NCBI GenBank assembly: GCA_963666285.1
Contig: OY762711.1
Length of the DNA stretch: 64,000 bases
DNA from: Sedimentisphaerales bacterium
Lineage (GTDB): Bacteria; Planctomycetota; Phycisphaerae; Sedimentisphaerales; SM23-30
Reading direction: 5' to 3' (one strand)
How positions within the stretch are numbered: position 1 is the first letter of the stretch; each line of letters opens with the position of its first letter. Below the pieces are notes generated by a model. The model saw nothing but the letters and a program-made list of their open reading frames with translations, was not told the origin of the DNA and searched no databases. Shown here one piece after another: positions 12,723 to 52,686 of the stretch. Made by a program: the position numbers and the translations under genes.

Positions 12723-14332
12723 TGGACTACCCCGATTATTTACAACTTATACCGGATTATGACCCGGTTGCAACAGCCGAGGACTGTACTTTTGACGCTG
12801 AAATTGCGCAGCTTGCTATTGATTTCTTTGCTGAAGAGTTGTGTTTAATCGAGGGTGTACCGGGTTATCCTGCCTTTATCCTTGAGGCATGGCAAAAGGC
12901 TATTATCGCTAATCTGTTCGGCTGGCTGCGTCCTGATGGCACTAGGCGTTATACCGAAGCGTTTTTAATGATACCACGTAAGAACGGTAAAACCCCGCTT
13001 ATGGCAGGTGTGATTAACCATATAGCCTATAATGAGGATGAGCCAGGCGGTCAGATATATTCCAGTGCCGGGGAAAAGAACCAGGCCGCTTTGATATTCC
13101 GTCATGTAGCGGGCATGATTCAGCGTAATCCAGAGCTTGACAAGCGGGCCAAGATATACAAGACCTATAAAAGTGCCGAATTTTACGGCGGTGACTGTAT
13201 CTATAATGCTCTTTCTGCTGACGCTAATACCAAGCATGGTCAGAACGCCCATTTGATTATCAATGATGAGCTGCATGTACATAAAACAAGGGATTTGATT
13301 GATACCCTGGAAACGTCCACCGCTTCACGAAAGCAGCCTTTAGTAATTCATATTACTACTGCCGGATATGACAAGGAAACAATCTGTTATGAAAAATATG
13401 ATTATGCCTGTAAGGTTCGTGACGGTGTTATAAATGACAGTTCATTCCTGCCTGTTATCTATGAAATCAAGCAGGCTGATTATGACCGCTGGGATGATCC
13501 GGCTGTATGGGAATATTGCAACCCGAATTTAGGTATATCGGTTAATCGTGACTATCTGGAAAAGCAGTGTCAGAAAGCAAAGGCAATCCCGGCAAAAGAA
13601 AACACCTTCAGGCGTTTACACCTGAACCAGTGGACAGAGCAGGAATGCCGCTGGTTAAGTGTTAAGGCGTGGCAGGATTGCAATGTCGAACTTAGAAATG
13701 ATAACGGTATTATCTGGATCGGCGGGCTTGACCTATCAACTACAACAGATTTAACGGCCTTTACTGCTTTGGGTTTTGATTCGCTTGGTAATCTGCACTG
13801 GCATAGCTGGCCTTTTATCCCGAAAGATAATGCAACCAAGCGGGAACATCAAGACGGCGTTCCTTATCTGACCTGGGCGCGGCAAGGTAAAATCACTCTT
13901 ACAGATGGTAATGTAGTTGATTATAACGTGATTCAGGATCATATATTGAAAATGCACCAGATATATAACTTTGCTGAAATAGCTTATGACCCATATAACG
14001 CTACTCAGATGATATTAAACTTACAGGATAAAGGCATAGAATGTACGCCTTATGGTCAGGGTATAAAGAATATATCCCCGCCTTGTAAAGCTTTAGAGGC
14101 TTTGTTACTGGCTGGCAAAATCGCCCATGATGACCATCCTGTATTAAACTGGTGCGTTTCTAATGTAACGGTCAAACAGGATGAAAACGAAAATATCAAG
14201 CCTGTCAAGCCTAAGAACTTTAAGCGTATCGATATTATTGTTGCCGGTCTAATGGCTTTAGGCCGGTTAATTACAGAGAACCACGAAACCCAAGAATCAA
14301 TTTATGAGGAAAGAGACCCTTTTACATTCTAA
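12722..14332 (+). CDS. Terminase large subunit
   Basis: PRKNGKT Walker A, DELH, GGLDLS, KRID. Confidence 0.97.
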   Translation: MDYPDYLQLIPDYDPVATAEDCTFDAEIAQLAIDFFAEELCLIEGVPGYPAFILEAWQKAIIANLFGWLRPDGTRRYTEAFLMIPRKNGKTPLMAGVINHIAYNEDEPGGQIYSSAGEKNQAALIFRHVAGMIQRNPELDKRAKIYKTYKSAEFYGGDCIYNALSADANTKHGQNAHLIINDELHVHKTRDLIDTLETSTASRKQPLVIHITTAGYDKETICYEKYDYACKVRDGVINDSSFLPVIYEIKQADYDRWDDPAVWEYCNPNLGISVNRDYLEKQCQKAKAIPAKENTFRRLHLNQWTEQECRWLSVKAWQDCNVELRNDNGIIWIGGLDLSTTTDLTAFTALGFDSLGNLHWHSWPFIPKDNATKREHQDGVPYLTWARQGKITLTDGNVVDYNVIQDHILKMHQIYNFAEIAYDPYNATQMILNLQDKGIECTPYGQGIKNISPPCKALEALLLAGKIAHDDHPVLNWCVSNVTVKQDENENIKPVKPKNFKRIDIIVAGLMALGRLITENHETQESIYEERDPFTF

Positions 14333-17300
14333 TGTTACCGGAAATTATAAAAAAGAATAAAGACGAGGTATTAGATGAGCTTGTTAGTGTTATTATGGTT
14401 GCACGTAATGAAAAGCTGCTTGGTAAAACCTTAAATAATATGCAGCAGATGTCAGAAGGCCCGATAGAGTTCATTGTTTTACTTGATGGCCCAAATGATG
14501 AGCCGATTGATATAGCAGGTGCAAAGACTACTATTATCACCCTGAAAGATAATATAGGCAGAAGGCCCGCAACTGACAAGGCTGTTTCTTATGCTAAGGG
14601 TAAGTATGTATTTCATATAGATTCACACTGTAAAACCGATGTTTTCGGTTGGGATACTATATATAAGCAGCTATGTATTGATAAGCGTACTATGGTAATT
14701 CCAGACCTTGACGCTTTGTTAGTAGATAAATACAAAAGCAAAGGCCGTCGAGCTGGTCATAAATATATTGATGTTCGCTATAAAGATCAATGGAGCGGCG
14801 TTAAGACCCAGGGCCGTAATGAATATACCATTACTGGTAACGGTATGGGCTGGTTTCTGGAAAAGCAGTTTTATGATGCTTTTAATGGCTGCTGTAAAAA
14901 ACAGCCTGCCCGGTGGGGTAATTTCGGGGTTGAATGGGCCTCTAAAGTCTGGCTTTCTGATCCATACGGCGAGGGTATCGGCGGTAAGGTTATATTGTGC
15001 GGTGAAGTGCCGTTTGCTCACATGTGGAAAACAGGCGGCACAGGCTATAATACACCGGGGGTATCTAAAGGCAGGCAGGATTTATTCAAGTGGTTTAATG
15101 GTACAGGTGAGAATCAGTGCCGGGAATTTAGCTTTTTTGAAACTGAGCTTAAACACTTACTGCCTAAAAGGGTTAAGCATGAACATAAACGGCCTTTAAC
15201 TGTCTCATTACCGCCTGTCGCTGTTGTCAATTGTGACAAGCCCGCTGTAACGGCGATAATGAATACAAACGGTCTTTACCCACATTTAGACGCTGAGGCC
15301 ATAGAAAGCTTTTTACGGCAGGATTACGAAAATAAGCAGCTTATTATAGTTGCAACAAATCCAACATACAAGCTTGATAAGAGCTATGAAAATATTACAG
15401 TAATCAACCATGAACCGTTTAACCGTTTCCCGCAGCAGATAGCCTATGCCTTAAAGCAGGTTAAAACGCCGCTATGGTGCATTATGGATTCAGATGATGT
15501 ATTTAGTTCTGACCATATAAGCAGACTTGTAAAGCTATATCACAGGGCTAAAAGTGACGGTCTGGAAAGTCCCGGCTATGTGGTAAATGATACAGCCTGG
15601 GAACAGGTAAAAAATAACTGGCCTAAACGCCGGGAGCGTGGCTGGTGGTGTTGCCTGTATGAAAAGGTTGATAGTACCTTTATTGATGAGGTATTCAATG
15701 ACTTTCTAGCTAGTAAACAGAAAGATACCGGCAGCGACTTACATTTCATTAAAAATCAGGAATGGAACTGGATTAAATACCATAATGAAAAAGCGACCGT
15801 ATTGCACCGGCTCGGCGTAGGCTTCCATATCAGGAATGAACATAGTAAGCCAGGCTATTACAGAAATTCAATAGAAAAGGTCAAAAATAACATATTAGAG
15901 CCAATTATACCCGGTTGGCAGAAAGATTATAATGATATGATAGATAACTTTAACAATCCCGCTATTACCTGCATTATGAATACATTTCAAAGGGATAGAG
16001 CAACACTTGAAATAGCTGTAAATTCCTTTTTGAATAATGACTATGAAAATAAAAAGCTTCTTATTGTCAACAGCAATCCTAAACCGCTATGGATTAATGG
16101 CTATCACCCATGTATTGAAGTTGTAAATATTGCACCTTCTGACCATATAACCGAGTTTAAGCAAGCCTTAAATTATGTTAAAACATCGCATGTATCAATC
16201 CTTGACGATGATGACCGGGTAAGTATTAACCACGTTGGACAGATAGCAGAAGCTCTAAAAGCCAATAAGTTCAAGAATATTATCAATCTGAACTTTGAGG
16301 AAATGGATTGCAGTAATATCAAGCCTGGAAATATGTCCGGGCCGGTAAAGCAGCTTAAAAAACTTATGTGGTGGAATGGTGTCTATCGTACTGATGATAT
16401 GCGTAAAGTTGATATCGGTACAGACCTGCAAGGCTTTGATAAACGTATTATGGCAGCTTTAGCACCGCTTGAACTTGACTTGCCTGTTACTTATACATGG
16501 TGTCGCAACCATGTAATACATGAAAGCAAGTCCGGCAGAAACGCCCATAAAAACAAACTGGATCGGATTGCAAGAGCCAGAGCCGAGGCAAGCCCGCAGC
16601 CTATTACATTGGATTATACATTAAGTGAATACCCCGAAGTTACTGTAGTTTGCTGCACGTATGGCGCACATAAACACCGTACCGAAGAAATGTTAGAATC
16701 ATTTTTACGGCAGAGCTATCCAAAGGCAAGGCTTTTATTGCTTAATACCCATAAAGACCCTATTGTATTTCAGCAGCGGTATAGCAATATAGATGTTGTG
16801 GAAATGCCGGGCCATAACTTCGATACCCTTGCCAAAAAGCATGAACACGCTATCAGTCTGGTTAAAACACCTTATTGGATGATTTGTGATGATGACGATA
16901 TTATGCTGAAAAATCACATATTAACCTTAATGCAGGTCAATTACTGGAATAAGCGAGGGTATCATAAACCATCAAATAAACGGCCTTTGCAATCTTCACA
17001 TGAACGCAAGATTGTAATGTGTAATAATGATTATGCCTTTATCAAGAATGGTTCGGGCTGGACTTGTGCAGCATTTGAGACAGTGAGCCGGGATAAGCTG
17101 GCAGCCAAGTTTAGCAAACCTGTAAAGGGTTTGCCTGATAACTGTTACGATGGCCGGGTTCGTTTAAGTTCATGGCATGAGCAGCGTATCAGTTACCCAT
17201 TTTTACCGGGCTATGTCTGGCGTGGCGGTGGTAATGGATTTCACTTATCTATGACCGGAAAAAACAAGCAGTTAGCCGATTATGCCTATGAAAATGCCGA

Positions 17301-17907
17301 GCAGCGGGCAAACCTTATTAATAATGGTACTTGGCATCCGCATTTTGAAAAAGACTATAATAGCGAATTTGCGGCGTTTCTGTACAAGGCAGAAGAAAAG
17401 CGGCTGCATGGCAAAAATGCTTTTTATGTTCATTTGGATGATAAAGGTGCTATGCGTACAAAGGAATTTAACTTTGTTGTTGATTTCCTGAAGCAGCATA
17501 ATATCAGCAAAATAGTAGAGTTTGGCTGTGGTGCTTCTACTCTTTCCTTTGCTTCACTTGGCTTTGATATTACCAGCTATGAAACAAGTCAGTATTGGCA
17601 TGATAAAATTAGGCTGCTATTAGACCGGGATTGTATCAAGTTATATGATGGTGCAGCCATTAATTTGCCTGTACATGACTTTATTATCATTGATGGCCCA
17701 GACCCACCGGAAACAAGGGAAGAATCATTTATCGCTGCTGTTAACTCAAAGAGTAAATACATTGCCTGTCATGATATATTCAGAAAGCAGGAGCAGGATT
17801 TAATCAGTAAATACCTGATTGGCACAGGTTACAGGGAAATAGCCAGGCTTGAACCAAGTAAAAAACATAAACTGCATGGAGTAGCTATATATGGTCTTGG
17901 CAATTGA
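14332..17907 (+). CDS. Multidomain glycosyltransferase (GT27-like + 3x GT2-like) with C-terminal class I methyltransferase
   Basis: FHIDSHC, DSDD, DDDD, DDDD motifs in four repeated GT-A starts; VEFGCGAST...IDGP methyltransferase. Confidence 0.88.
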   Translation: MLPEIIKKNKDEVLDELVSVIMVARNEKLLGKTLNNMQQMSEGPIEFIVLLDGPNDEPIDIAGAKTTIITLKDNIGRRPATDKAVSYAKGKYVFHIDSHCKTDVFGWDTIYKQLCIDKRTMVIPDLDALLVDKYKSKGRRAGHKYIDVRYKDQWSGVKTQGRNEYTITGNGMGWFLEKQFYDAFNGCCKKQPARWGNFGVEWASKVWLSDPYGEGIGGKVILCGEVPFAHMWKTGGTGYNTPGVSKGRQDLFKWFNGTGENQCREFSFFETELKHLLPKRVKHEHKRPLTVSLPPVAVVNCDKPAVTAIMNTNGLYPHLDAEAIESFLRQDYENKQLIIVATNPTYKLDKSYENITVINHEPFNRFPQQIAYALKQVKTPLWCIMDSDDVFSSDHISRLVKLYHRAKSDGLESPGYVVNDTAWEQVKNNWPKRRERGWWCCLYEKVDSTFIDEVFNDFLASKQKDTGSDLHFIKNQEWNWIKYHNEKATVLHRLGVGFHIRNEHSKPGYYRNSIEKVKNNILEPIIPGWQKDYNDMIDNFNNPAITCIMNTFQRDRATLEIAVNSFLNNDYENKKLLIVNSNPKPLWINGYHPCIEVVNIAPSDHITEFKQALNYVKTSHVSILDDDDRVSINHVGQIAEALKANKFKNIINLNFEEMDCSNIKPGNMSGPVKQLKKLMWWNGVYRTDDMRKVDIGTDLQGFDKRIMAALAPLELDLPVTYTWCRNHVIHESKSGRNAHKNKLDRIARARAEASPQPITLDYTLSEYPEVTVVCCTYGAHKHRTEEMLESFLRQSYPKARLLLLNTHKDPIVFQQRYSNIDVVEMPGHNFDTLAKKHEHAISLVKTPYWMICDDDDIMLKNHILTLMQVNYWNKRGYHKPSNKRPLQSSHERKIVMCNNDYAFIKNGSGWTCAAFETVSRDKLAAKFSKPVKGLPDNCYDGRVRLSSWHEQRISYPFLPGYVWRGGGNGFHLSMTGKNKQLADYAYENAEQRANLINNGTWHPHFEKDYNSEFAAFLYKAEEKRLHGKNAFYVHLDDKGAMRTKEFNFVVDFLKQHNISKIVEFGCGASTLSFASLGFDITSYETSQYWHDKIRLLLDRDCIKLYDGAAINLPVHDFIIIDGPDPPETREESFIAAVNSKSKYIACHDIFRKQEQDLISKYLIGTGYREIARLEPSKKHKLHGVAIYGLGN

Positions 17908-17993
17908 TATTTGTCTATTGGGCGTGATATATAGGGTTTCAATATTGTTATTTTATCAAGCGATTAAATGTTTAAATACACGAGGTGTATATG
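17901..17993 (+). promoter_or_regulatory. Conserved late leader/promoter motif, copy A
   Basis: CAATTG-N13-GGGCGT-N14-CAATAT-N11-CAAGCG...TACAC-GAG-GTGTA-T-ATG; matches 22650-22738. Confidence 0.6.
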
Positions 17994-18680
17994 GAAGAGA
18001 ATAATAAAGCTGTTGTGATCCGCTGGTATGGGCCTGGAACACCTAGAATTATAGACCCTAGCTGTATTACTAAAGGTTGGGACTATATATTTCTGACAGA
18101 TGATTTATCACATAATAGTTCTGATATATGGGAATCGCTTTTAATGCGTTTCCCAGGCTATAGCGGTGAACATGAATCGAAGATCATCAAGGCTATGTTT
18201 CCAATAATATATCCTAAATATGATTGGTGTGTAATTATCGATACTGAAAAGTATATCATTGATTCAGACCTGGACGCTCTTATCTACCAGTTACAGCCTG
18301 AAACAGAATTTGCAGCGTTAAGGCATAGAGTAACAAATTGTACCTATCACGAAATAGCACGCAACCGCAAGTATAAAAGGGATAGTAACGAGGCTTTAGA
18401 TGCCATAACTACAACAAACCTTACAACAAACCTACCTGTTAAATCTGGTTTATATGACACTTCTATAGTAATTTATAAATGTACAGAAAAGATGTGTGAA
18501 GCTCTTAAAACATGGGCTGAAATGATAAAGGTTTGTAAGCGTGACCAGTGCAGTATAGTAACTGCCATGCGTGAACATAAAGTTAATACCGAATATTTAC
18601 AGCTTGCTAATTACAAGCACTATAAGAAGCTAAGGCCAACAAGTAACGTATATGCTGAAAAGTCTATTGAACATATTTAA
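17991..18680 (+). CDS. DUF616 (TOD1/MUCI70-like) glycosyltransferase-like protein
   Basis: GWDYIFLTD, PKYDW..IID, H...CTY.E, GLYD.S, RDQCS. Confidence 0.8.
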   Translation: MEENNKAVVIRWYGPGTPRIIDPSCITKGWDYIFLTDDLSHNSSDIWESLLMRFPGYSGEHESKIIKAMFPIIYPKYDWCVIIDTEKYIIDSDLDALIYQLQPETEFAALRHRVTNCTYHEIARNRKYKRDSNEALDAITTTNLTTNLPVKSGLYDTSIVIYKCTEKMCEALKTWAEMIKVCKRDQCSIVTAMREHKVNTEYLQLANYKHYKKLRPTSNVYAEKSIEHI

Positions 18681-25593: not shown

Positions 25594-25608
25594 TATGTAA
25601 AGGTCATT

Positions 25609-27012
25609 ATGGCAACTGTAGCAACATTATTAGTAAACCTTACCGCAAAGACTGTATTGTTTGAGCGTAATATCAAGCGAAGTCGTAAGAAGCTTAACAG
25701 GTTTGAAAAAGCCGCAAAAGCAAGCGTGACGGCTGTTTCCAGAGTCTTTAAGGCTATGGGTATAGCAGCGGCGGCGGGCTTTGGTGCTGTTTCTGTGGCT
25801 GTTGGTAAGTCTATGGGTAAAATTGACAGTATTGCCAAATTATCCGACCGGCTTGGAATTGCGACAGAGGATTTAATAAAACTGCAACATGCCGCCGAAC
25901 TGTCCGGGGTTAAAACTGAATCGCTGAATACTTCCATACAAAGGATGGTTCGGCGTGTTGGTGAAGCTGCACAGGGTACAGGAGAGGCCAAAAATGCCCT
26001 GGTAGCTTTGGGGGTAGATGCCAAGAAACTCAACCGGGAAGGCCCGGCAAAAGCACTTTTAACGCTGGCTGATGCCTTTGCTAAAGTTCCGAGCCAGGCA
26101 GATCGTGTTAGATATGCCTTTAAACTATTCGATACTGAAGGTGTGGCAATGCTGCAAATGCTGCAAGGCGGTTCCGGTTCAGTACGTGAAATGATGGCTG
26201 AGATAGATAAGTTTGGTGGTGCAATAAACCGGGTTGACGCTGCACAGGTTGAAGCTGCTAACGATGCTATTACTAACCTGAAGAAATCAACCGCCTTGCT
26301 TACTGACAAGCTTGCTGTGGGCCTTGCGCCGTATATACAGTATGTAAGCGACTTGTTTATTGATATGCGTTCCAGCGGTGTTATAAGCACAAATAGCATA
26401 AACAAGGGTTTGGAAAAGACCTTTAGAATAGCAAATATTATCGCAAAAGCTTTTAATGTTGTTCATGGAATACTGAAAATAGTGTCGGCTTTTATAGGTG
26501 GTGTTATAACCTTATTCAGTGGGCTTACAAGTGTTGTTCTTGATGTAGTGTCGGCAGTGTCAAAACTGGTTGGTAAGCTGCTTGACTTGCAGTCAGTATC
26601 AGATTTTGCCGAATCGACAGGCAATAAAGCAAGGGAGCTTGAAGCTTTTGCAACTGAATTAAGTAAACAAAATAACAATCTTGCCAAAGAAGGGTTAAAC
26701 CAGATATTTTCCTTTGATGATGGTAAAAAGACAATAGATAAAATATTCAATGAGGTTGAAAAAAGGCGTAAAGCTACAGAACTGAAGATTAAGACCAGAG
26801 ATAAAATAGGTTCTGTTAGTGAAAGTATGCCGGTGTCTGCTGCTATGAAAGGCGGCTCAATAATTAGTATTGATGCCGGTGCTGTTTCTGTTGGCTCGCT
26901 TGGCTCTTCATTGAGTAATAACAAAATAGCCCAGAACTTAAAGGCAAACGAAAAAACAGCACAGAACACAACGGCAATAGCAAATACTATCCAGAATGTT
27001 GTATTGAGGTAA
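25609..27012 (+). CDS. Tape measure protein (short, 467 aa)
   Basis: MATVATLLVNLTA, Ala-rich helical, follows chaperones. Confidence 0.88.
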   Translation: MATVATLLVNLTAKTVLFERNIKRSRKKLNRFEKAAKASVTAVSRVFKAMGIAAAAGFGAVSVAVGKSMGKIDSIAKLSDRLGIATEDLIKLQHAAELSGVKTESLNTSIQRMVRRVGEAAQGTGEAKNALVALGVDAKKLNREGPAKALLTLADAFAKVPSQADRVRYAFKLFDTEGVAMLQMLQGGSGSVREMMAEIDKFGGAINRVDAAQVEAANDAITNLKKSTALLTDKLAVGLAPYIQYVSDLFIDMRSSGVISTNSINKGLEKTFRIANIIAKAFNVVHGILKIVSAFIGGVITLFSGLTSVVLDVVSAVSKLVGKLLDLQSVSDFAESTGNKARELEAFATELSKQNNNLAKEGLNQIFSFDDGKKTIDKIFNEVEKRRKATELKIKTRDKIGSVSESMPVSAAMKGGSIISIDAGAVSVGSLGSSLSNNKIAQNLKANEKTAQNTTAIANTIQNVVLR

Positions 27013-27015
27013 TAG

Positions 27016-27819
27016 ATGTCAGTAGTATATACAGATTTAATCGATGGTGACGCTGCAACCTATACCCGACGTGGTTGGGAAAATATCAGCCGTTCAGCTT
27101 TGGTAAGTGGTATTAGCCCAAGTATTAGCGGTCATGCAAAGATAATGCAGGCTTTTAATATATTAGAGCTTGATATTGGTATGCAGCATCCAAGTTTTGA
27201 CAATAACTATATCCGTTCTATTTCGCCGACTTCGATAGCTTCTGATACTGTAACATTCCTAATACAGTATGAGCAAATGACCGGCTTTGCAGATGAAATA
27301 AGCGGCGGTGGTGGACTGATACAGATTGAAACTAACCTGGATCGGAACGGCAAAGCAATTGTTTTAGAATACACGTATCCTGATGACTATGCTATTGATA
27401 TAAAATATGCCGGGCAGACAGATAAAGTAAGCAAGTTAATAGCTGTTGATAAGTCAGTTGTGCCATTGTCAATTAAACGCAGACAGATATTTTCTGCTAT
27501 TCAGAAGCCTCAGCAGCTTGCGGAAAGCTATGTCGGTAAAGTCAATAGTGATAACTGGTCTGTTGCCTTTGATGGTGCAACTCGCAGATGGAAATGTACA
27601 GGTATAGACTTTAATTATGTACTTCCAATATTTAATTCAGGCAAACAGTATGTTTATGATATGACATATCAGTTTCAATATAATTCTAACGCCTGGAATG
27701 AGTCGCTTATTTATGTTGACCCCAATACCGGCAATCCGCCCGAAGATGCCGAGGCAGATGAATTTGAAGTATTAGACCAGATAGCTTTTAACAGCCTTAT
27801 TGACAGTATAATTACATGA
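27016..27819 (+). CDS. Putative tail (distal tail/hub) protein
   Basis: Position after tape measure; beta-rich. Confidence 0.55.
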   Translation: MSVVYTDLIDGDAATYTRRGWENISRSALVSGISPSISGHAKIMQAFNILELDIGMQHPSFDNNYIRSISPTSIASDTVTFLIQYEQMTGFADEISGGGGLIQIETNLDRNGKAIVLEYTYPDDYAIDIKYAGQTDKVSKLIAVDKSVVPLSIKRRQIFSAIQKPQQLAESYVGKVNSDNWSVAFDGATRRWKCTGIDFNYVLPIFNSGKQYVYDMTYQFQYNSNAWNESLIYVDPNTGNPPEDAEADEFEVLDQIAFNSLIDSIIT

Positions 27820-29252
27820 GCAGAAATTCATATAAAATTGAAAAATTTACACAAGGCCCGCATTCGACCGTTAAGCGTCTGAACCAGGTTATAGACACAG
27901 TAAATACGCTATCCAGCCGTAAAACAAGTGTTATCAATGGTAAAGTGCTTAAAGATGATATGGTCTTTGGTATTATAAATAGTACCGAGGTAGATGATGA
28001 GGGTTATTTCAGGGGTACATTATTTAATCGTGAAAATGAAGAAGTACCGGAAACAAATCCTTATTATGATATACTGATAAAGTGTCAGATAGCCGAATAC
28101 CCAAATGTATTAAAGAACAACTACTTTACTGCTATCAGGAATAAAATACAAGATGAATGGTATTGTACTGGTATCTATGTAGGTGATGCCAGTTCGTTAA
28201 GTTCATTCCTTAGCTCTGAAACTGAAAGCAGCTCGAAACATTCGAGCGATAGTTCAGAGTCAACAAGTGGCAGTTCTGACGGCACAACAGCAAGTTCATC
28301 ATATAGTTTTTCCAGTGAATCAAAATCTATAAGCAGCAGTTCATCATTATCAAGCTTTAGTTCTTATGATAGTTCTGGCAGTTCCGGTACATCTGCAAAA
28401 AGTTCTCATAGTTCAGGGCATAGTTCAAGTTCAGTGGATAGTTCTGGTAGTTCAGATGGCAGTTCGGGCAGTTCTGACCATACTTCCGGTAGCTCATACG
28501 AAAGTACAGGCAGTTCAGATTTAACATCGGGTAGTTCAGACGAAAGTTCCGGCAGTTCGGATAACACTTCTGGTAGTTCAGGTAGTAGCTCAGGTAGTTC
28601 TGACTATACGTCGGGTAGTTCAAGTGTAAGTTCTGGTAGTTCTGACCATACATCAAATAGTTCTGATAGAAGTAGTGGCAGTTCAGATCATACATCAGAA
28701 TCACGTAAAAGCTCAAGCAGTCGTGATTTCAGTACGCCACCGCCTTTGTCTAGTTATAGTTCCTGGGATAGTTCCGGCAGTTCTGAAGATGAATCTTCCT
28801 CTAGTTCCGGTGATTCATCAGATAGTTCAGCTTCAAGTTCTGGCAGTTCTGCTAGTTCAAGTGGCAGTTCCAGTAAAAAGTCAAGCTCTAGTTCTGGGGG
28901 GAGTTCCAGTTCAAGTTCTGACAATTCCTCAAGTAGTTCAGAGGGTAGTTCCAGCGAATCATCTTCAAGCGATTTGCCGATAGAAGTTGGCGGCGATTGC
29001 TGTTTATGTAGTATGTTAAGTGGCAAAGATGTTACTGTTGGTTGGGGAGGTGGTACTGGCGGTTATTCCGGTGGTAGTTGTGCTTCTAATATAGCTATAG
29101 ATTGTGGTGGTATTAGTGGAGCTGGTACATATACAGTTTTATGTCCAGGCAATAAAAAGGTAACTGTGTCCGTTGGCGGCGGTGAATATTGTGCAAGTTG
29201 TTGTAACGCATATTTTGCCGATGCTGTAATTGATAGTATAGAGTATTTATAA
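27816..29252 (+). CDS. Putative tail protein with ~260-aa Ser-rich tract and Cys/Gly-rich C-terminus
   Basis: Translation; overlaps the upstream tail gene. Confidence 0.8.
   Translation: MSRNSYKIEKFTQGPHSTVKRLNQVIDTVNTLSSRKTSVINGKVLKDDMVFGIINSTEVDDEGYFRGTLFNRENEEVPETNPYYDILIKCQIAEYPNVLKNNYFTAIRNKIQDEWYCTGIYVGDASSLSSFLSSETESSSKHSSDSSESTSGSSDGTTASSSYSFSSESKSISSSSSLSSFSSYDSSGSSGTSAKSSHSSGHSSSSVDSSGSSDGSSGSSDHTSGSSYESTGSSDLTSGSSDESSGSSDNTSGSSGSSSGSSDYTSGSSSVSSGSSDHTSNSSDRSSGSSDHTSESRKSSSSRDFSTPPPLSSYSSWDSSGSSEDESSSSSGDSSDSSASSSGSSASSSGSSSKKSSSSSGGSSSSSSDNSSSSSEGSSSESSSSDLPIEVGGDCCLCSMLSGKDVTVGWGGGTGGYSGGSCASNIAIDCGGISGAGTYTVLCPGNKKVTVSVGGGEYCASCCNAYFADAVIDSIEYL
28191..28970 (+). repeat. Ser-rich coding repeat, core heptad x(S/T)SGSSD (21-bp period)
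   Basis: About 12 consecutive heptads from ~28438; recurring GGYAGTTC DNA motif. Confidence 0.92.
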
Positions 29253-29253
29253 T

Positions 29254-30372
29254 ATGGTTGTAGTATTAGAAAAAAATAATCTTGTACATGAATATCCAGA
29301 ATGTTTCCATAGGGTAGGTAATATTTGCCTGTATGGTTCCAGGCGGACAGGTAGAGCATGTAGGGTAAATGAGGTATTTTGTAAATTCTTATGTGCTGCT
29401 AAAGGCGGCCCATGTAATAAAGAATGTAACGGCAATGAGCCAAAAGCCGTATTTAAAAAGATGTTTGGTAAATCGATGCCTTTTCTTAATTCATTATTTA
29501 TAGAAAAGATACTCAAGAAATATTTTGGTACATTTGAAATCAAAGTGCCGGGAATGTGGGAACTAATAAAAAAAAGCTTCCAGCCGGTATTAGATGAGTT
29601 TGACGACTGTTTAGGCGGTGTGCTTATAACAGGCTCTTTAATGGTTGTTGGTGCACCATTGAAAGACATAGATATTTTACTTGAGGTTAAGGATGAAAAG
29701 CTATTTGGTCAGAAGTATGACGAGATAATATCAAAGGTTCCCAAAACAGTTAATAATATTACGGTGGATTGCTTTTTCTGTTTTGATAAGCATAAGAACT
29801 TTTTTATGTTGATGAACCCTGATAAGCGAGAGGTTTATACAAGTGAGTTTTTTGAACCATCAATTGTTAACGGTAAAGAGTTTAATATTGTATCTTCTGA
29901 TAATCCGTACTATTCAGATGGCTTTGTTGCTATGGTAGAATTTTTGTATGAATATAATGCTGATACTAAATTCATTATCGATGAAATTGAACGTATAAAA
30001 AAGGTATATGGTGAGGAAGTCGTTAATCATATATTGGCTTTACAAGCTAAGTATAGAGACAGTATCGAAGCTTTACAGAAATGCTATACCTGCCAGTATT
30101 ATAGAAATAAATGCAATAATTGTTCCCCATATTGTTTATGGTTAACCAGGCAAAAAAATCTAATTGAATGGCTGAAAAATGGGAATGCCTGTCCATTAGA
30201 TAATAATGCTGCATTGCAATCTGATGATAGCAGCTTTTGCCGTAAAAAGAGTATGTGTACTAATTGCAAGTATTATATTGAAAGTAGTGATATGTGCCTG
30301 TATTTAACCAGGGCAACAAATCTAAACAACTGGATCAAGCAGGATAACGCTTGCCCGCTTAATAAATTCTAA
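29254..30372 (+). CDS. Cys-rich protein with central nucleotidyltransferase-like motif
   Basis: LITGSL...KDIDILL...VD; duplicated C-terminal CxxCxYY...CLxLTR..NL..W.K...ACPL. Confidence 0.6.
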   Translation: MVVVLEKNNLVHEYPECFHRVGNICLYGSRRTGRACRVNEVFCKFLCAAKGGPCNKECNGNEPKAVFKKMFGKSMPFLNSLFIEKILKKYFGTFEIKVPGMWELIKKSFQPVLDEFDDCLGGVLITGSLMVVGAPLKDIDILLEVKDEKLFGQKYDEIISKVPKTVNNITVDCFFCFDKHKNFFMLMNPDKREVYTSEFFEPSIVNGKEFNIVSSDNPYYSDGFVAMVEFLYEYNADTKFIIDEIERIKKVYGEEVVNHILALQAKYRDSIEALQKCYTCQYYRNKCNNCSPYCLWLTRQKNLIEWLKNGNACPLDNNAALQSDDSSFCRKKSMCTNCKYYIESSDMCLYLTRATNLNNWIKQDNACPLNKF

Positions 30373-30382
30373 AAGGTGCTGT

Positions 30383-30592
30383 ATGTGTGATAAGTGTGTA
30401 CAAGAAAAAAGGGTAACAAATATTGAACATGACCTATACGGCAACGGTCGGCCAGGTCTGAAACAAGATGTTACCCAAATTAAAAATGATTTAATGTGGT
30501 TGAAGCGGATAGGCGGCTGGATCGCCGGTATGCTTGCGGTTATTATAGCCGGGCTGATACTTGCAGGGGTGCAGTATTTGACTAAGCTTTAG
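30383..30592 (+). CDS. Small membrane protein, holin/XhlA-like
   Basis: Coiled coil, LYGNGRPGL, one C-terminal TM helix. Confidence 0.6.
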   Translation: MCDKCVQEKRVTNIEHDLYGNGRPGLKQDVTQIKNDLMWLKRIGGWIAGMLAVIIAGLILAGVQYLTKL

Positions 30593-31853: not shown

Positions 31854-32457
31854 TTGATGTTCCTTGCGTAAGTGTAGAAAAAATATCCTTTATATAGCTA
31901 TTGATAGGTTGGTAAGATACGATTGTAATAAGGCTAGCAACTAATCCTATAAGCCAGAAAATAAATTGCAGGAATTTAAGAAACTTTGATTCTTCAATTG
32001 CTTTCTGTTCCATGCCTATTTTTTCGGCAGCATAAACAGGAATTAATGAAATTGCATTAAGTAACATTGCAATGTAGAGAAAAGGATTTATTGAGCGTAA
32101 TAACGAGGGGAATATATTATATTTGTACACTCCAATAGCCCTATCGATATAGCTTACTATTGTGCTAGGCGGTACGTCTCTGGGGTTGATTAAATCAAAA
32201 TTTCTAATCACATTAACCGTTGTTGTCCCTTCATCATTAGTAATATGTATTGCGGTATTTATATCTGATGAACCGAGCATGAGTTCGGTTATATGTGACC
32301 TTTGATTAAATTTTATTTCATATTCATGTCTTTCATTACCAGTCCTTGAGTGAAAATAATTATTCAGTATTGTCTTAGATTTTGACAAATACATAAGCCT
32401 ATGAATATTATTTATAATCATTATTTTTTTATAATGTCTCAAAACATAAACTCCCAT
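31846..32457 (-). CDS. Membrane protein (2 C-terminal TM segments)
   Basis: Hydrophobic helices; overlaps the PIN gene start. Confidence 0.7.
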   Translation of the reverse strand: MGVYVLRHYKKIMIINNIHRLMYLSKSKTILNNYFHSRTGNERHEYEIKFNQRSHITELMLGSSDINTAIHITNDEGTTTVNVIRNFDLINPRDVPPSTIVSYIDRAIGVYKYNIFPSLLRSINPFLYIAMLLNAISLIPVYAAEKIGMEQKAIEESKFLKFLQFIFWLIGLVASLITIVSYQPINSYIKDIFSTLTQGTSNA

Positions 32458-32572
32458 GTTATAAATTACAAAAATGATATGAAAATATTTTAAGCAGAAA
32501 CACTTTTATTTCCAATTAAATAATAGAGAGCCGGTTTTAGGTGATGTATTAAAGGCAAAATAAGCTAAAAGG

Positions 32573-32593
32573 TGTGGTTGTTTTGTGGTTGTT
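32573..32593. repeat. Direct repeat TGTGGTTGTT x2 (candidate integrase arm sites)
   Basis: Copies at 32573 and 32584, ~115 bp left of the att core. Confidence 0.5.
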
Positions 32594-32705: not shown

Positions 32706-32753
32706 TTTGGCCTACGAAACCAAAGGTTACAGGTTCGACTCCTGTCGGGCGTA
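32706..32753 (+). pseudogene. 3' half of tRNA-Arg(ACG), probable att core
   Basis: Anticodon loop CTACGAA, T-arm ACAGG-TTCGACT-CCTGT, acceptor 3' strand CGGGCGT; no matching 5' strand or D-arm upstream. Confidence 0.88.
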
Positions 32754-32803
32754 TTTGTAAACACTTGTAAAATAGAAACTTATAAAACTGAAAACTATAG
32801 AAC

Positions 32804-36140: not shown

Positions 36141-36153
36141 GGAGAATTAAATT

Positions 36154-46985: not shown

Positions 46986-48320
46986 TTATATATGTTATTG
47001 TGCTGGTGAGCCTGGGAGCCAGGTCTATAGTGCAGCAGCTTCAAGGGAACAGGCTTCCCTTATCTATAATGATATGGCAGCTATGATAGAGAGGAATCCT
47101 TCTCTCTCAAAGAGAGCCAATTTAACTAAAGCCTATAAAAAAATAGAAATTGAGTCTAAAGAGGAATGTGTTTTTAAGTCTCTTTCTTCTGAGGGAAAGG
47201 TTTTACATGGTCTAGATATATATGCACTATGTATAGATGAACTTCATTGTATCTCTGACAGGGAATATTTAGCGGCTCTCACAACGGCTCAGGGAGCAAG
47301 AAAGAACCCTCTTACTATATATATAACTACTGCTGGAGTCTATGAGCCTAATAGCCCTTGTTATGAGAAATATGATTATTCTAAAAAGATAATTGAGGGA
47401 GTTATTCAAGATTCTTCATTTCTCCCTGTTATATTTGAAGCTGATAAAAATATAGATTGGCGAGAAGAGGAAACATGGAAACAGGCTAATCCTAACTTGG
47501 GTGTTTCTGTATCATTAGATTATCTAAAAAAGAAATGTGAGGAAGCTAAAAACCTTCCTTCAGAAGAGAATAATTTTAAGAGACTCCACCTTAATCTATG
47601 GACAGAACAATTAGATAGATGGCTCCCTATGGAAAATTGGAATGAGTGTGATGAACTGCCTTCCAAGGATAATTCTATAAAATGGTATGGTGGTCTTGAT
47701 ATGTCTACAGTTACAGACTTATCTTCATTTGTTTTAGTGGGAGAAGATGAAGAAGGATATTTCCATGTTCATACTTGGGCGTTTATTCCCAAGGATAACA
47801 TAACAAGAAGAGAAGAAAGAGATAAGGTTCCCTTCTCTGTATGGGCTAAAGAAGGAAAGATAGAACTAACAGAAGGAAACTCAATAGACCATGATTATAT
47901 AAGGAAAAGAATAGGAGAGATTGCTGAAGAGTTTGAGATAAAAGAAATAGCAGTAGATAGAGCTAATGCAACTCAGATAATAACTCAACTAATGGGAGAT
48001 GGTTTTGAAATTGTCCCTCATGGACAAGGTTTTCTCTCTATGAGTTCTCCTTCAAAGTTTTTAGAAACTCTTCTATTGCAGAAGAAAATTAAACATGGAG
48101 GACAGCCTGTTTTAAGATGGTGCGCTAGTAATGTTACAGTTGAAACAGATGCTTGTGAAAACATAAAACCTTCTAAAAAGAAGTCAATAGAAAGAATTGA
48201 TAGTATTGTTGCCTTAGTTATGGCATTAGGGAGACTGATTTCAACTGAAATAGTTGAAGAAAAAGAATCTGTTTATGAGTCAAGAGGAATATTAAGTTTT
48301 TAAGATTGGGAAAAGGGAAT

Positions 48321-51300
48321 ATGGGAGACAAGGAAATAATTAAAATCAATAATAGAAATCCATTTGTTCAAAAAATAAATGAAGCTTCAAATCCTTATAA
48401 CAAGGGAAATAGTATATTCAATGTTAGAAAGAAACCATATGAAGAAGTTAAGGAAGAATTAGTTTCTGTTGTTATCCTGTCTAGAAATGAAGAATTTTTA
48501 TCTCAGACAATAAATAATATGTCTGAGCTGGCTGAGGGACCAATTGAGTTTGTTATAGTTTTGGACGGGGACTATGAACCTGAAAAGATAATTGATGTTA
48601 ATGAAACTCTTCACAGGTCTCATTCTATTCAGTTTGTTTGTAATAAAGAGCCACTAGGGAGAAGACCTTCTTCAAACCTTGGAGCAGAGAGAGCAAGAGG
48701 GAAATATCTTTTCCATTTAGATGCTCATTGCAAAACTGATTGTAAGGCATGGGACACATTACTTAAACAGTCTGTAACTACTCCTTCTACTATGGTTATT
48801 CCTTCCCTGAATAAACTTATTGTTCCTGAATATAAGCAAGTTGGGAATAGGAATGGACACAAGTATATAAGTGTCAATTTTAAGGACCAATGGTCCGGAA
48901 ATAAGGGAAGATATAACTTAGAACCTACTATAACAGGAAATGGAATGGGATGGTTTTTGACAAAGGAATATTATTTATCCTGTGGAGGTTGTGATGTTTC
49001 TTCTCCTGCTTATGTATGGGGAAACTTTGGTATAGAATGGGCTTTGAAAACTTGGCTATGTGATTTTGGTTTAGGAGCTGGACAGGTCCTTCTTACAACT
49101 GAAGTTGTCTTTGCTCATTTATGGCAAAAGAAACTTCCATATAAACAGCCAGGAATAGGGAAAGATAGAAACAGATTAAAAGAAATGTATCTTGATGGAA
49201 AAGCCCCTAATCAAGTTAGACCATTTTCATTCTTTGAAGAGAACCTTGGACACCTTCTCCCTAAAAATAAAGAGACACCTGAGAAACAGCCTTTAAGAGT
49301 TCTACAGGAAGAAACTGAACCTGATGTAACTGTCATTATGAATACTAACGGTCTTTATCCCGATTTGATTGAGGAAGCAATTCAATCATTTATAAATCAG
49401 GATTATCCAAATAAATATTTGAAAATAGTTTCAACTAATAAACATTTGAAACTTGATAGAGAATATGAAGATATAGAAATTATTTATGTTGAACCATTTG
49501 AAAGATTCCCACAACAGATTCAATATGCTTTGAAACAAGTTAAGACTCCTTATTGGTGTATTATGGATTCAGATGATGTTTTCAGTTCAGACCATATTTC
49601 TAAGCTAGTAAAAATAATGTTAAGGGAAAAGAAGAATGGATTAAAAAGCCCTTGTTATGTAGGGATTGATGGAGCCATAGAGCATTGGGTTAATAAAGGA
49701 ACTCCTAAACTTAGAAATAGAGGGTGGTGGTCTTGTCTTTATGATAGAGTTCCTGATGAAAAGATAGATGAAGTATTCAATGAGTTTCTTAATAAGAGAA
49801 ATAAGGACACAGGCTCAGACTTGCATTTTATAAAGAAAGATTTTTGGAATAAGAAACTAGTTCAAGGGAAAAAGACAGCCTATCACAGATTAGGAGTAGC
49901 TTTCCATATTAGAAATGAAAGATGGAAGGATAATTATTATAAAAACTCATTAGAGACTGTTAATAACTATGTTCCTCCTGTATTGGTTCCCAAATGGAAA
50001 AAGGATTATGATAAAATGATAAATGATTTTAATTATCCAAGAGTTACTTTGATTATGAACACTTTTCAAAGGGACATGAAGACTCTTCAAGAATCCATAT
50101 ATTCTTTCTTATGCCAGGATTACCCAAATAAGAAACTTCTGATAGTTAATTCTTCCCCAAAAAGATTAGTTCATAGAGGTTATTCTCCTGATGTTGAAGT
50201 TATAGATATTAAATCTTCTCACCATTTACAAGAGTTTAAGAATGCTTGTAAACACTTGATAGAGAATGCAGGAGATAATGAGTTCTTTTCTATTTTTGAT
50301 GATGATGATGTTTTAAAGCCTAATCATATTTCCCAAATGGTCCAAAATCTTCAGAAAAACAAGTTCAAATCTTGTATAAATAGAAACTATGTAGATTTCA
50401 ACATAAAAAGAAATTCGGGGAAAGAAGTATCTAAGCTTATGTGGTGGAATGGTATTTATCCTGTCTCTCTTTTAGAGACTATTAAATTAGGAACAGATTT
50501 AGAAGGCTTTGATAAGAGATTCATGGAACAGGCTAATCCTGTTGAATATGATGGAGAAGCAACATATATATGGCAAAGAGGAAATGTTATCCATGAATCC
50601 AAAACTAATAAAAACTCTCATGAAGAGAAATTAGATAGGATGAAGAGAGCTAAGGAAGAAGCTATGAACAGGAAAGATGATATCCCCGTTTATGTCAGAC
50701 CTTATATCCCTGATCCACCTATGATAACTGTTTGTATGGTTACTTATGGAAGTCATAAGGCTAAGACTGAAGAAGCTATTCAATCTTATATAAATCAATC
50801 ATATAAGTTTAAGAAATTACTAATTCTGAACACTCACAAGGACCCTATTAAGTTAGAAACTGAATATTCAGATATAGAGATTATAGAATTGCCTAATAAG
50901 AAGTTTAACTCTTTGGGAGAAAAACATGAATATCTAATAAATCAGGTAGATACTCCATATTGGACTGTTCTTGATGATGATGATATTATTCTCCCTTGGC
51001 ACCTTGAAACCTTGGCTTCTGCATTAGTTCATAATAGAGCTAGTTATGATAAGCCTTCACACAAGAGACCTTTATTAACAGGACATAATAGAAAGATTAT
51101 CTCCGTAGATAATAAGTATTCATATATAAAGAGTGGTTCAGGTTGGACCTGTCGAGTATTTGAGAAGTTGAGTCCTGATAAGGTAAGAGGGAAATTACAG
51201 AAGAAAATTAAGGGAACAAGTGAATGTAATTATGATGCTAGGTTCTGTTCTGGGAAATGGCACTCATTTATATTAAATTATCCTGTTCTTCCTTCTTATG

Positions 51301-52007
51301 TATGGAGAGGAGGAGGAGATAATTTCCATCTTTCAGCAGCAGGAGACACAGATGAAGTATTCAATAATGCTTTTAATAATGCTGAGGATGAAGCACAAAA
51401 AATAGATAATTCTTCTGTTTGGGTTCCTCATTGGGAAAAAGACTATGTTAAAGAGTTCTATTATTTTCTTAATATAGGAAGTCATAAACAAATATTTGGA
51501 AAGAATCATCATCATTTAAGACTAAGTTCCTCAGGAGCCATAAGGAAGAAAGAATTTCATTTCCTGAATGATTTCTGTAAAGAACATAATGTTAAGAATA
51601 TAGTTGAGTTTGGTTCAGGAGCCTCTACTCTCTCTTTCTCTTTGGAAGGATATAATATAACTTCCTATGAGACTAGTGAATATTGGCGTGACAGAGTTAG
51701 ACTATTCCTGAGTTATGACCCTATTAAAATGTGGGATGGAAAAGCATTTAAATTAGAAGAAGATGTAGATTTAGTTTTCATAGACGGTCCAGACCCTCCT
51801 GATTCAAGGGAAGAATCATTCAAGACAGCTATAACTAGTAATGCTAAATATATAGCTGCTCACGATGTATTCAGGCATATAGAGCAAAATTTTATTGAGA
51901 AATATCTTCTTCAGAATGGTTATAAGGAGATTGCAAAGATAGGACCAACAAAAGGAGTAAAAGGACCTAATAAACTAAGAGGGATAGGGATATATGGGAA
52001 AGAATAA
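48321..52007 (+). CDS. Multidomain glycosyltransferase (GT27-like + 3x GT2-like) with methyltransferase; homologue of 14332
   Basis: FHLDAHC, DSDD, DDDD, DDDD, VEFGSGAST; long blocks identical to the prophage 1 copy. Confidence 0.88.
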   Translation: MGDKEIIKINNRNPFVQKINEASNPYNKGNSIFNVRKKPYEEVKEELVSVVILSRNEEFLSQTINNMSELAEGPIEFVIVLDGDYEPEKIIDVNETLHRSHSIQFVCNKEPLGRRPSSNLGAERARGKYLFHLDAHCKTDCKAWDTLLKQSVTTPSTMVIPSLNKLIVPEYKQVGNRNGHKYISVNFKDQWSGNKGRYNLEPTITGNGMGWFLTKEYYLSCGGCDVSSPAYVWGNFGIEWALKTWLCDFGLGAGQVLLTTEVVFAHLWQKKLPYKQPGIGKDRNRLKEMYLDGKAPNQVRPFSFFEENLGHLLPKNKETPEKQPLRVLQEETEPDVTVIMNTNGLYPDLIEEAIQSFINQDYPNKYLKIVSTNKHLKLDREYEDIEIIYVEPFERFPQQIQYALKQVKTPYWCIMDSDDVFSSDHISKLVKIMLREKKNGLKSPCYVGIDGAIEHWVNKGTPKLRNRGWWSCLYDRVPDEKIDEVFNEFLNKRNKDTGSDLHFIKKDFWNKKLVQGKKTAYHRLGVAFHIRNERWKDNYYKNSLETVNNYVPPVLVPKWKKDYDKMINDFNYPRVTLIMNTFQRDMKTLQESIYSFLCQDYPNKKLLIVNSSPKRLVHRGYSPDVEVIDIKSSHHLQEFKNACKHLIENAGDNEFFSIFDDDDVLKPNHISQMVQNLQKNKFKSCINRNYVDFNIKRNSGKEVSKLMWWNGIYPVSLLETIKLGTDLEGFDKRFMEQANPVEYDGEATYIWQRGNVIHESKTNKNSHEEKLDRMKRAKEEAMNRKDDIPVYVRPYIPDPPMITVCMVTYGSHKAKTEEAIQSYINQSYKFKKLLILNTHKDPIKLETEYSDIEIIELPNKKFNSLGEKHEYLINQVDTPYWTVLDDDDIILPWHLETLASALVHNRASYDKPSHKRPLLTGHNRKIISVDNKYSYIKSGSGWTCRVFEKLSPDKVRGKLQKKIKGTSECNYDARFCSGKWHSFILNYPVLPSYVWRGGGDNFHLSAAGDTDEVFNNAFNNAEDEAQKIDNSSVWVPHWEKDYVKEFYYFLNIGSHKQIFGKNHHHLRLSSSGAIRKKEFHFLNDFCKEHNVKNIVEFGSGASTLSFSLEGYNITSYETSEYWRDRVRLFLSYDPIKMWDGKAFKLEEDVDLVFIDGPDPPDSREESFKTAITSNAKYIAAHDVFRHIEQNFIEKYLLQNGYKEIAKIGPTKGVKGPNKLRGIGIYGKE

Positions 52008-52686
52008 GAAAGTTATATACACTTCTTATTTTGGGAATAGAGGAGGAATTATAGAACCTTCTTATATATCCCCAGGATGGGACTATGTATTTTTCACTGA
52101 CAACGAATATATATATGATTTGAGTAAGAAACATCTATTAACTTGGAAGATAGAATATATTCCTACTACTACAGAAGAAACAGACTCAGAAATTAGAGCA
52201 AAGTTCTATAAAATTGTTTCTCATGCCTTTTTTCCTGAGTATGAATATTCCATATATATAGATTCTGACAAATACAAGATAGATTGTAACCTTGATAGAT
52301 TTATAGAAAATACTCTTTCTCCTGATTCTGTTTTTGCTTCTTTGAAGCATAGAAAATGCGATTGCACATATAAAGAGATTGAGAGACAGAGAAAAAGAAA
52401 AAGGGATTTTGATAAAAACTTCGATGATATAAGGGATAGATGTATAGATTCAGGACTTCCTGAGCATTGGGGATTGAATGATAATTCTATAGTTGTAAGG
52501 AAACATTGTTCAGAATTATATATAGTTATGAATAATTGGTGGTTAGAAGTTGCTAAGTATTGCAAGCGAGACCAATGTTCCTTAATGAAGGTTTTATATG
52601 AATCAGGTCTTCCATTTAATCAGTTGGAATATGAAGGATTTAAGAATTATAAAACTATGAGATATTTGAGTAGAATCTCAAAATAA
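51994..52686 (+). CDS. DUF616-like glycosyltransferase-like protein
   Basis: VIYTSYFG, GWDYVFFTD, FPEYEYSIYID, GLP..GL.D, WW.EV..RDQ.S. Confidence 0.85.
   Translation: MGKNKKVIYTSYFGNRGGIIEPSYISPGWDYVFFTDNEYIYDLSKKHLLTWKIEYIPTTTEETDSEIRAKFYKIVSHAFFPEYEYSIYIDSDKYKIDCNLDRFIENTLSPDSVFASLKHRKCDCTYKEIERQRKRKRDFDKNFDDIRDRCIDSGLPEHWGLNDNSIVVRKHCSELYIVMNNWWLEVAKYCKRDQCSLMKVLYESGLPFNQLEYEGFKNYKTMRYLSRISK

Follow-up and report, generated by a model that had tools for sequence, protein, structure and literature searches.

A serine-rich, probable tail-tip protein and its likely glycosyltransferase partner in a prophage of Sedimentisphaerales

The 64,000-nucleotide stretch analysed here (the window; contig OY762711.1 of the Sedimentisphaerales bacterium assembly GCA_963666285.1) contains most of a prophage, prophage 1, in whose late operon a gene for a 478-residue protein with a long serine tract follows the tape measure gene at a distance of two places. 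Probably this protein trimerises at the tail tip, and its serine stalk receives O-glycans from a multi-domain enzyme of the phage itself, the product of the open reading frame (ORF) at 14332. In comparison with a sister prophage, selection has preserved every hydroxyl of the tract, the first domain of the enzyme resembles the polypeptide GalNAc-transferases (ppGalNAc-Ts, family GT27), and in viral loci serine tracts co-occur with relatives of this domain. The parts of the gene are the following (G000 is this genome, C1 one of its contigs):

27816..29252, plus strand: the whole gene for the 478-residue putative tail-tip protein with serine stalk; sister copy at G000:C1:968195-969640, paralogue at C1:2179148-2180614
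27816..28190, plus strand: N-terminal anchor domain, a helix (residues 16-35) and an OB-fold barrel, predicted homotrimer
28191..28970, plus strand: Ser-rich tract (residues 126-385), presumed O-glycan acceptor, with all Ser and Thr unchanged against the sister prophage
28437..28688, plus strand: twelve in-register heptads xx(S/T)GSS(D), residues 208-291, with a 7-residue period also seen in the distant paralogue of prophage 2
28971..29249, plus strand: 93-residue Cys/Gly-rich C-terminal domain, exchangeable between paralogues

The ORF is free of internal stops, its ATG overlaps the stop of a 267-residue gene upstream, and the unmodified protein has a mass of about 47 kDa. A sequence-only reading had placed it in the slot of a tail tip or fibre gene and had described about 260 serine-dominated residues between a globular N-terminus and a small Cys/Gly-rich end. 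Both the slot and the architecture are borne out by the open frame, its place as second gene past the tape measure, the composition of the tract, a predicted OB-fold and the 93-residue end.

Selection on the serine tract

Residues 124-385 comprise 149 serines in 262 positions (57 %). The tract is built of Ser, Gly and Asp, is acidic, and contains only 3 Pro and 13 L/I/V/F/W. A 21-bp array was found by TRF at 28428-28642, and the 7-residue period exceeds chance, being reached by none of 2000 shuffles. The earlier statement that Ser heptads dominate some 260 residues thus holds for the dominance of Ser and for the period; however, the heptad xxSGSSD is confined to about 84 residues (12 units) and the remainder of the tract consists of irregular Ser runs.

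The genome carries three related prophages: prophage 1, a sister (C1, about 965-1005 kb) most of whose genes are about 90 % identical to its own, and the more distant prophage 2, which starts within the window. The two sister proteins can be aligned with a single 3-residue insertion. In the tract, synonymous divergence (dS) is 0.90 and nonsynonymous divergence (dN) 0.06, and the resulting dN/dS of 0.067 shows protein-level selection on the tract. All 149 Ser and all 13 Thr are unchanged and none has been gained; 28 of the 111 non-Ser residues have changed, often radically, and so has Gly at 5 of 25 positions. The conservation extends over the whole tract, with 47 of 47 serines kept before the heptads, 44 of 44 within and 58 of 58 after them. 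In a gapless comparison based on DNA only, all 60 differences within Ser/Thr codons fall on third positions and none on a first or second; 17 amino-acid changes were expected (P about 3e-12). In 31 other gene pairs of the sister prophages, 133 of 589 Ser-containing columns have changed. If composition alone were conserved in a linker, its serines should come and go, so each hydroxyl appears to matter. The same dN/dS, together with the sister copy and the paralogue, rules out an assembly artefact or a slippage repeat. Contigs from four public DNA runs (two studies) also span the gene, which is not independent support because some of the runs may be the source sample.

Over the interval 28191-30372, dS against the sister is raised: it reaches 0.90 in the tract and 0.62-0.66 in the distal region, compared with 0.24-0.41 in those packaging, glycosyltransferase (GT) and hub-slot genes that were tested. 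This rise suggests that the tail-tip module has been exchanged or that selection disfavours identical DNA repeats.

Serine codons alternate between the AGY and TCN families, with 67 of the 82 Ser-Ser pairs of the tract being mixed where 40.9 are expected. The alternation is absent from the prophage 2 paralogue (29 of 61 pairs mixed, 28.6 expected) and is not general across ten Ser tracts of other phages. The codon family is set by the position within the heptad, which points to descent by DNA duplication. Alternation alone is therefore no proof of protein-level selection, and we reject it as such, since descent from a duplicated unit accounts for it better. The sequence-only reading had taken it as a sign of maintenance at the protein level: the alternation is real and selection does act, as dN/dS shows, but the argument that linked the two is weak.

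It could be that the protein is a tail-tip part with an unmodified tract, in which the serines are frozen by regular packing of small residues (a serine ladder or tight beta-solenoid) or form a hydrated spacer, the GT array being aimed at the capsid, DNA or the host surface. OB-fold spikes normally continue into a beta-helix, and the distant paralogue in prophage 2 has retained the 7-residue period, as such packing would have it. Nevertheless this is unlikely: the tract has almost no hydrophobic residues, its serines are frozen in the irregular parts too, and a plain spacer should gain and lose serines.

The glycosyltransferase array

The preferred reading, that the stalk is glycosylated by the phage itself, draws on two genes placed between the large terminase (TerL) and the portal gene:

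14332..17907, plus strand: 1191-residue protein, soluble, comprising four GT-A (GT2-like) domains and an end that is weakly methyltransferase-like; its start overlaps the TerL stop
14377..15081, plus strand: GT domain 1, ppGalNAc-T (GT27)-like; D97-x-H99, W195-G196, E201 and H230 are kept, and E334/N335 of ppGalNAc-T2 (T2) are replaced by F198/G199
17985..18680, plus strand: 231-residue TOD1/MUCI70-like, GT-like protein between the GT array and the portal gene (PF04765, E 0.005, below the cut-off)

ORF 14332 has no hydrophobic or membrane segment (maximum KD19 1.07). By sequence comparison, the best matches of domain 1 are polypeptide GalNAc-transferases and not GtfA/B. As a single sequence it finds ppGalNAc-Ts at E 0.02-0.07, behind an ordinary GT2. 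A profile built solely from the two prophage GTs ranks ppGalNAc-T1/T2/T9 as the top 9 PDB sequences over the whole catalytic domain (best E 5e-6), and once one viral homologue is added, ppGalNAc-Ts fill the first 13 places among PDB sequences (best E 5e-13). In the alignment, D97-S-H99 and H230 correspond to D224-x-H226 and H359 of T2, equivalents of Trp331, Glu337 and His359 are kept, and the Gal/GalNAc-T motif WGGENxE reads WGNFGVE, with W, G and the second E retained; the DxH, Trp331 and His359 features of ppGalNAc-Ts are described in PMC6994419 (in excerpt). GT2-like domains follow domain 1 at the place where ppGalNAc-Ts have their C-terminal ricin lectin domain. Since E334/N335 are replaced, the donor sugar is uncertain and may not be GalNAc. 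For the same reason, and because it has neither lectin domain nor anchor, domain 1 is called GT27-like here and is not filed as a member of the family. The 231-residue protein has a paralogue in prophage 2 which matches PF04765 at E 7e-12.

Of 401 genomes in the class, 4 have the GT27-like domain at an E-value no higher than 1e-10, one match covering only the N-terminal half. The domain was found neither in this genome outside the three prophages nor among 50,697 GenBank phage records. A direct locus scan with the full ORF 14332 returned nothing.

Another way in which the serines could be modified involves the gene next to that of the 478-residue protein:

29254..30372, plus strand: 372-residue Cys-rich protein with a weak nucleotidyltransferase-like middle domain (PF01909, E 0.07; Atlas leads 0.89)

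This protein or a host enzyme might phosphorylate, nucleotidylate or phospho-link the serines, so that they would not, or not first, carry the sugar of ORF 14332. Frozen hydroxyls fit any O-modification, the adjoining gene has its nucleotidyltransferase-like domain, and the Asp-Ser-Ser repeats recall the phosphorylated dentin phosphophoryn. The tract, acidic and poor in Pro, is also unlike the usual ppGalNAc-T acceptors, which are Pro/Ser/Thr-rich (PMC6994419, in excerpt). However, prophage 2 has the tract and the GT array and, by tblastn, no homologue of the 372-residue gene, and what co-occurs with tracts in other viruses is the GT27-like domain. We thus regard such a modification as very unlikely.

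Co-occurrence of enzyme and tract

Each of the three prophages has a GT array between TerL and the portal gene and a Ser-rich gene two places past the tape measure. Beyond this genome, the GT27-like domain has 333 relatives in IMG/VR, of which the best 80 were examined together with 7 earlier loci, a tract being counted where at least 24 Ser fell within 60 residues on the same strand and within 10 kb. Such tracts are present in 62 of the 87 GT27-like viral loci (59 with an overlap filter) and in 0 of 114 control loci, which were centred on tube, post-tape-measure or portal homologues and include some duplicates of one contig as well as two loci, on one contig, that carry a GT27-like domain. 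Among loci of 15 kb or more the figures are 39 of 43 against 0 of 42, and a tract accompanies 23 of 28 GT27-like clusters at 60 % identity. In stretches of two complete control phages, whose genomes were read in part, the coding strand reaches at most 8 Ser in 30 residues, and one shadow frame on the opposite strand reached 28 Ser in 60. The sequence-only reading had named equally frequent tracts without the GT cassette as the outcome that would speak against it. The counts came out in its favour, and its proposal that the tract is a glycan acceptor for the co-encoded ORF 14332 is, on this co-occurrence, probably correct.

That tracts travel with the domain is also at odds with an unmodified tract. 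On the other hand, relatives L123, L144 and L155 carry other GT clusters and no Ser tract, as that alternative would allow, which means that phage GTs need not have a tract. As to DNA as the target, the Pfam and PHROG scans of the prophage genes, which did not extend to the arm beyond the left edge of the window, gave no match that suggests a base hydroxymethylase of the kind associated with DNA glycosylation.

Prophage 2 repeats the association in diverged form:

48306..52686, plus strand: paralogous GT array of prophage 2 (1233 residues, 52 % identical) and a TOD1/MUCI70-like GT
57370..59253, plus strand: head-closure protein of prophage 2 with two SGT/SGS repeat tracts (PF05521, E 2e-19; TIGR01563)

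Its Ser-rich protein retains the 7-residue period behind an N-domain that is 37 % identical. The head-closure protein, extended to 627 residues with tracts of 28 Ser in 62 residues and 25 Ser in 53, is by its sequence a second candidate acceptor, this time on a recognisable virion protein.

The tail module itself also occurs without the enzyme. In related phages it comprises the tape measure, a 250-290-residue 'DPxTG' gene, a helix-motif gene (roughly 140-290 residues, one of 450) and then often Cys-rich genes. About 20 relatives with this module have post-hub genes without a tract, and 15 of 16 virus records with it are without the GT27-like domain. The only module-bearing record that has the domain carries it immediately after a Cys-rich tail gene in which a short STTTTTP run occurs. 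At L127:14566-16515, on the contig that also bears L143, the gene directly after a Cys-rich tail gene with a short CCSTTTTTPEPG run encodes a Cys-rich domain fused to the GT27-like domain, an arrangement that is possibly a minimal version of the system.

The putative tail-tip protein

Prophage 1, a temperate siphophage, is intact; it measures about 40.6 kb and sits in tRNA-Arg, where its attachment-site (att) repeat is 44 bp long. Three features mark its distal part:

25609..27012, plus strand: short tape measure protein (TMP), 467 residues (PHROG 9483, E 3e-62)
27016..27819, plus strand: conserved 267-residue post-TMP gene, in the Dit/hub slot by position only
32712..32755, no strand: attR, a 44-bp repeat of the tRNA-Arg 3' end, with attL at C1:2104112

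The late operon runs from the terminase through the 1191-residue GT array, the 231-residue GT-like gene, portal, protease, capsid and connectors to a lambda-like tube, chaperones, the 467-residue tape measure and the genes of 267, 478 and 372 residues. In siphophages the tail-tip genes follow the order TMP, Dit, Tal (PMC7291167, in excerpt). The slot in the late operon past the TMP agrees with the tail-tip location proposed earlier, and from it we infer that the 478-residue protein is present in virions. The 267-residue neighbour gave a poor model (pLDDT 53) with no fold match, and PDB and PHROG profile searches with it were without a match. Locus scans led to one already-known phage in metagenomes and to one unrelated locus in genome contigs. 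Because this gene could not be assigned, we only infer that the 478-residue protein docks on the tail axis.

Residues 1-125 are predicted by AlphaFold2 (AF2), from seven sequences, to form a helix and a beta-barrel (pLDDT 80). The barrel is an OB-fold whose structure matches (Z 6-7.5) are not family-specific, with spikes of phages and injection systems at Z 6.0-6.7, ribosomal OB proteins at up to 7.5 and IF1 as high. As the spikes tie with ribosomal OB proteins, the fold alone names no family. Three copies of the domain are predicted to associate, with a trimer score of 0.87 against 0.00 for the best control, pLDDT of at least 75 and runs agreeing in at least 86 % of contacts, a mark which 20 of 30 true pairs and 1 of 23 monomers reached in calibration. 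The N-terminal helix carries a motif common to the post-hub tail genes that occupy this slot in relatives (score 26, reached by 0 of 200 shuffles). A phmmer search with the N-domain gave 7 matches, five of which are proteins of 203-229 residues without a long tract; P0002 and P0005, being long repeat-rich proteins, were dropped as chance matches. A search for longer N-domain homologues returned only P0008, weakly, and the full-length protein has no Pfam, PHROG or NCBIfam family and no useful Atlas match (0.75).

The protein might also act outside the virion, as a glycoprotein for lysogenic conversion or a glycosylated decoy, either inside the host cell or on its surface, and the prophages do carry host-type surface genes (beta-helix, PEP-CTERM). 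Such a role is highly improbable for a gene which is translationally coupled within the late operon two genes past the TMP and which has the helix motif of its counterparts in the same slot. Moreover, the protein has no LPxTG, signal peptide, hydrophobic 19-mer above 1.05 or anchor segment.

The C-terminal 93 residues, with 9 Cys and 19 Gly, evolve slightly faster than the tract (dN/dS 0.16 against the sister prophage). They have no family match and, in profile comparison, no similarity to the Cys-rich tail genes of relatives, and an unrelated, Cys-poor end takes their place in the prophage 2 paralogue. These findings do not favour the idea, part of the sequence-only reading, that the Cys-rich end binds a receptor; such a role is possible but unsupported, and rather unlikely. 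By analogy, the domain might alternatively bind metal, as lambda gpL does (PMC7291167, in excerpt).

Proposed mechanism

If the tail-tip stalk is indeed glycosylated by the phage, the 478-residue protein would be a structural tail-tip part of a temperate siphophage. Its N-terminal helix and predicted OB-fold trimer would dock at the tail end like the OB-fold central spikes, and three 260-residue serine chains would continue where spikes usually have a beta-helix. Late in infection, the soluble 1191-residue enzyme would be translated along with the packaging genes. The ppGalNAc-T-like domain 1 would add the first sugar to the Ser/Thr hydroxyls of the tract, and domains 2-4, the 231-residue GT and the methyltransferase-like end may afterwards lengthen or cap the chains. 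This would yield a bottle-brush stalk, stiff and resistant to proteases, with a small exchangeable C-terminal domain. With about 0.25 nm per residue, as in mucins, its 260 residues could span roughly 65 nm.

A bolder version, speculative and rather doubtful, sees a mucin mimic at the infecting tail end. A polyprotein assembly line (GT27-like initiator, three extenders, methyl cap) would put glycans on practically all serines of a trimeric stalk whose length is close to that of the tail, and the glycan itself, not a protein domain, may be captured by carbohydrate-binding surface proteins of the host.

Several points weigh against a glycosylated tail-tip stalk. On the side of the tail, the 267-residue neighbour, placed by position only, could be identified neither as a Dit nor as a hub protein, the OB-fold match is generic, with ribosomal and IF1 proteins scoring as high, and the predicted trimer may owe its score to likeness to solved OB trimers. 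On the side of the enzyme, the lone GT sequence matches ppGalNAc-Ts only weakly, behind an ordinary GT2, and it shows other residues in place of T2 E334/N335 and has no lectin domain. The co-occurrence has its exceptions: 25 of the 87 GT27-like loci, many of them short, are without a tract, in one relative the enzyme is accompanied by no more than five Thr in a row, GT clusters of other kinds occur in several relatives that have no tract, and the portal-centred controls often stop short of the distal tail genes. Furthermore, the domain in the window is about 30 % identical to the viral family used for the co-occurrence, whose tracts are Ser/Pro-rich (15 % Pro), whereas that of prophage 1 is Ser/Gly/Asp with 3 Pro. 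Finally, this lineage provides two independent cases only, because two of the three prophages are sisters.

Relation to known systems

The closest published system is the virion glycosylation of mycobacteriophages, which Freeman et al. (2023) reportedly describe for Che8, Corndog and Myrna. There, glycosylation of the capsid and tail tube has been shown chemically (excerpts via PMC11256854, PMC12619734, PMC12363180, PMC13313380 and PMC12582341). As is proposed in these excerpts for the same three phages, phage-encoded GTs would modify the phage's own structural proteins, and in both cases the GT genes lie among structural genes, here between TerL and portal in 3 of 3 prophages. In the excerpts, the mycobacteriophage glycans sit on the capsid and on tail-tube C-termini, whereas the candidate acceptor here is an internal tract of 260 residues in a predicted tail-tip trimer. 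Also unlike the mycobacteriophage case, the putative initiating domain is ppGalNAc-T-like and fused to three more GT domains.

With the ppGalNAc-Ts (GT27; PMC6994419, in excerpt), ORF 14332 shares a GT-A domain aligned over about 240 residues, the equivalents of DxH, Trp331, Glu337 and His359, and a dense Ser/Thr tract nearby as candidate acceptor. In contrast to them it is soluble, has no type II membrane anchor or lectin domain, and has E334/N335 replaced. Three GT2-like domains and then a methyltransferase-like end come after domain 1, and the presumed acceptor is Ser/Gly/Asp instead of Pro/Thr/Ser.

A long Ser-rich stalk repeat with co-encoded cytoplasmic GTs is also the mark of the serine-rich repeat adhesins (SRRPs) Fap1, GspB and PsrP (PMC6973325, in excerpt). 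The sequence-only reading had taken Fap1/GspB as the model of the mechanism, and in this it does not hold up. The protein has no long signal peptide, LPxTG or GtfA/B-type match, its repeats are SGSS heptads, its N-terminus, a predicted OB-fold trimer, belongs to a protein of a phage tail operon, and the putative initiating domain is of the GT-A kind and resembles ppGalNAc-Ts, so that membership of the SRRPs is rejected. Among the window ORFs scanned, where the GTs are GT2-like, neither GtfA/GtfB nor SecA2/SecY2 has a Pfam or NCBIfam match, the rest of the genome lying outside this search.

Finally, the predicted barrel resembles the OB-fold central spikes (P2 gpV 3qr8, phiKZ 6orj, AFP 6rbk, PVC 9qgm) over about 70 residues (Z 6.0-6.7, root-mean-square deviation 2.6-3.5 A), as do the predicted trimer and the place near the tail tip. 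It differs from them in that its Z-scores tie with unrelated OB proteins, what follows is a Ser tract nearly free of hydrophobic residues and probably no beta-helix, and the tail is of the non-contractile, lambda-like tube type. No description of a phage ppGalNAc-T-like enzyme or of a mucin-like tail-tip stalk was found in the literature, as judged by titles and abstract openings with few subscription journals covered.

Other genes of the prophages and their relatives

In prophage 1, the 372-residue protein does not score against profiles of the relatives' Cys-rich tail genes. The right arm (30582-32457, minus strand) holds two moron genes, one with a PIN domain, that are not in the sister prophage and are possibly a defence or toxin-antitoxin pair. 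No excision joint was seen in the public-run contigs spanning 25600-33000. Just beyond attR, at 33171-36753, lie large secreted beta-helix-type genes and small PEP-CTERM-type genes, and the same gene types are found in the left arms of both sister prophages (G000:C1:2107238-2111419 and 998537-1003355).

Prophage 2 begins with two adjacent DUF3102-methyltransferase fusion genes (37418-39468) and looks defective. Its large terminase gene (45331-48303) is split by a DDE transposase at 45686-46969, and the gene at 59263 (59263-62137) is apparently interrupted by a second, minus-strand insertion (60557-61849). The gene after its Ser-rich gene differs from that of prophage 1: the region at G000:C1:2180604-2182541 (L001:6605-8542) encodes a 234-residue protein, GT-like by eye and with no Pfam, NCBIfam or PDB match, a holin-like gene of 115 residues, and a papain-family C1 peptidase that is possibly an endolysin. 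Lysis genes of this kind were not recognised in prophage 1.

On contigs C2-C4 of the genome (65-66 kb each) there is no GT27-like domain, homologue of the 267-residue gene or long Ser tract; C3 shares a homologue of the 297-residue gene at 10524. Small integrated elements in two other genomes (G211:C46, L024 and L025; G349:C5, L026 and L027) combine a tape measure, a 267-residue-type gene and a short helix-motif tip gene, with no capsid, portal or tube seen by eye. They are possibly satellites that bring their own tail tip.

Significance

The sister pair amounts to a rare natural experiment, with dS near 0.9 and no change at any of the 162 hydroxyl residues of the tract. If the stalk is glycosylated as proposed, phage self-glycosylation would extend to the adsorption apparatus. 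Glycoengineering would gain a soluble peptide O-glycosyltransferase of bacterial type along with its natural acceptor, and the pair would also bear on how mucin-type glycosylation originated. Should the mucin mimic also prove true, this viral enzyme family would be the prokaryotic counterpart of the enzymes that start mucin glycosylation in animals.

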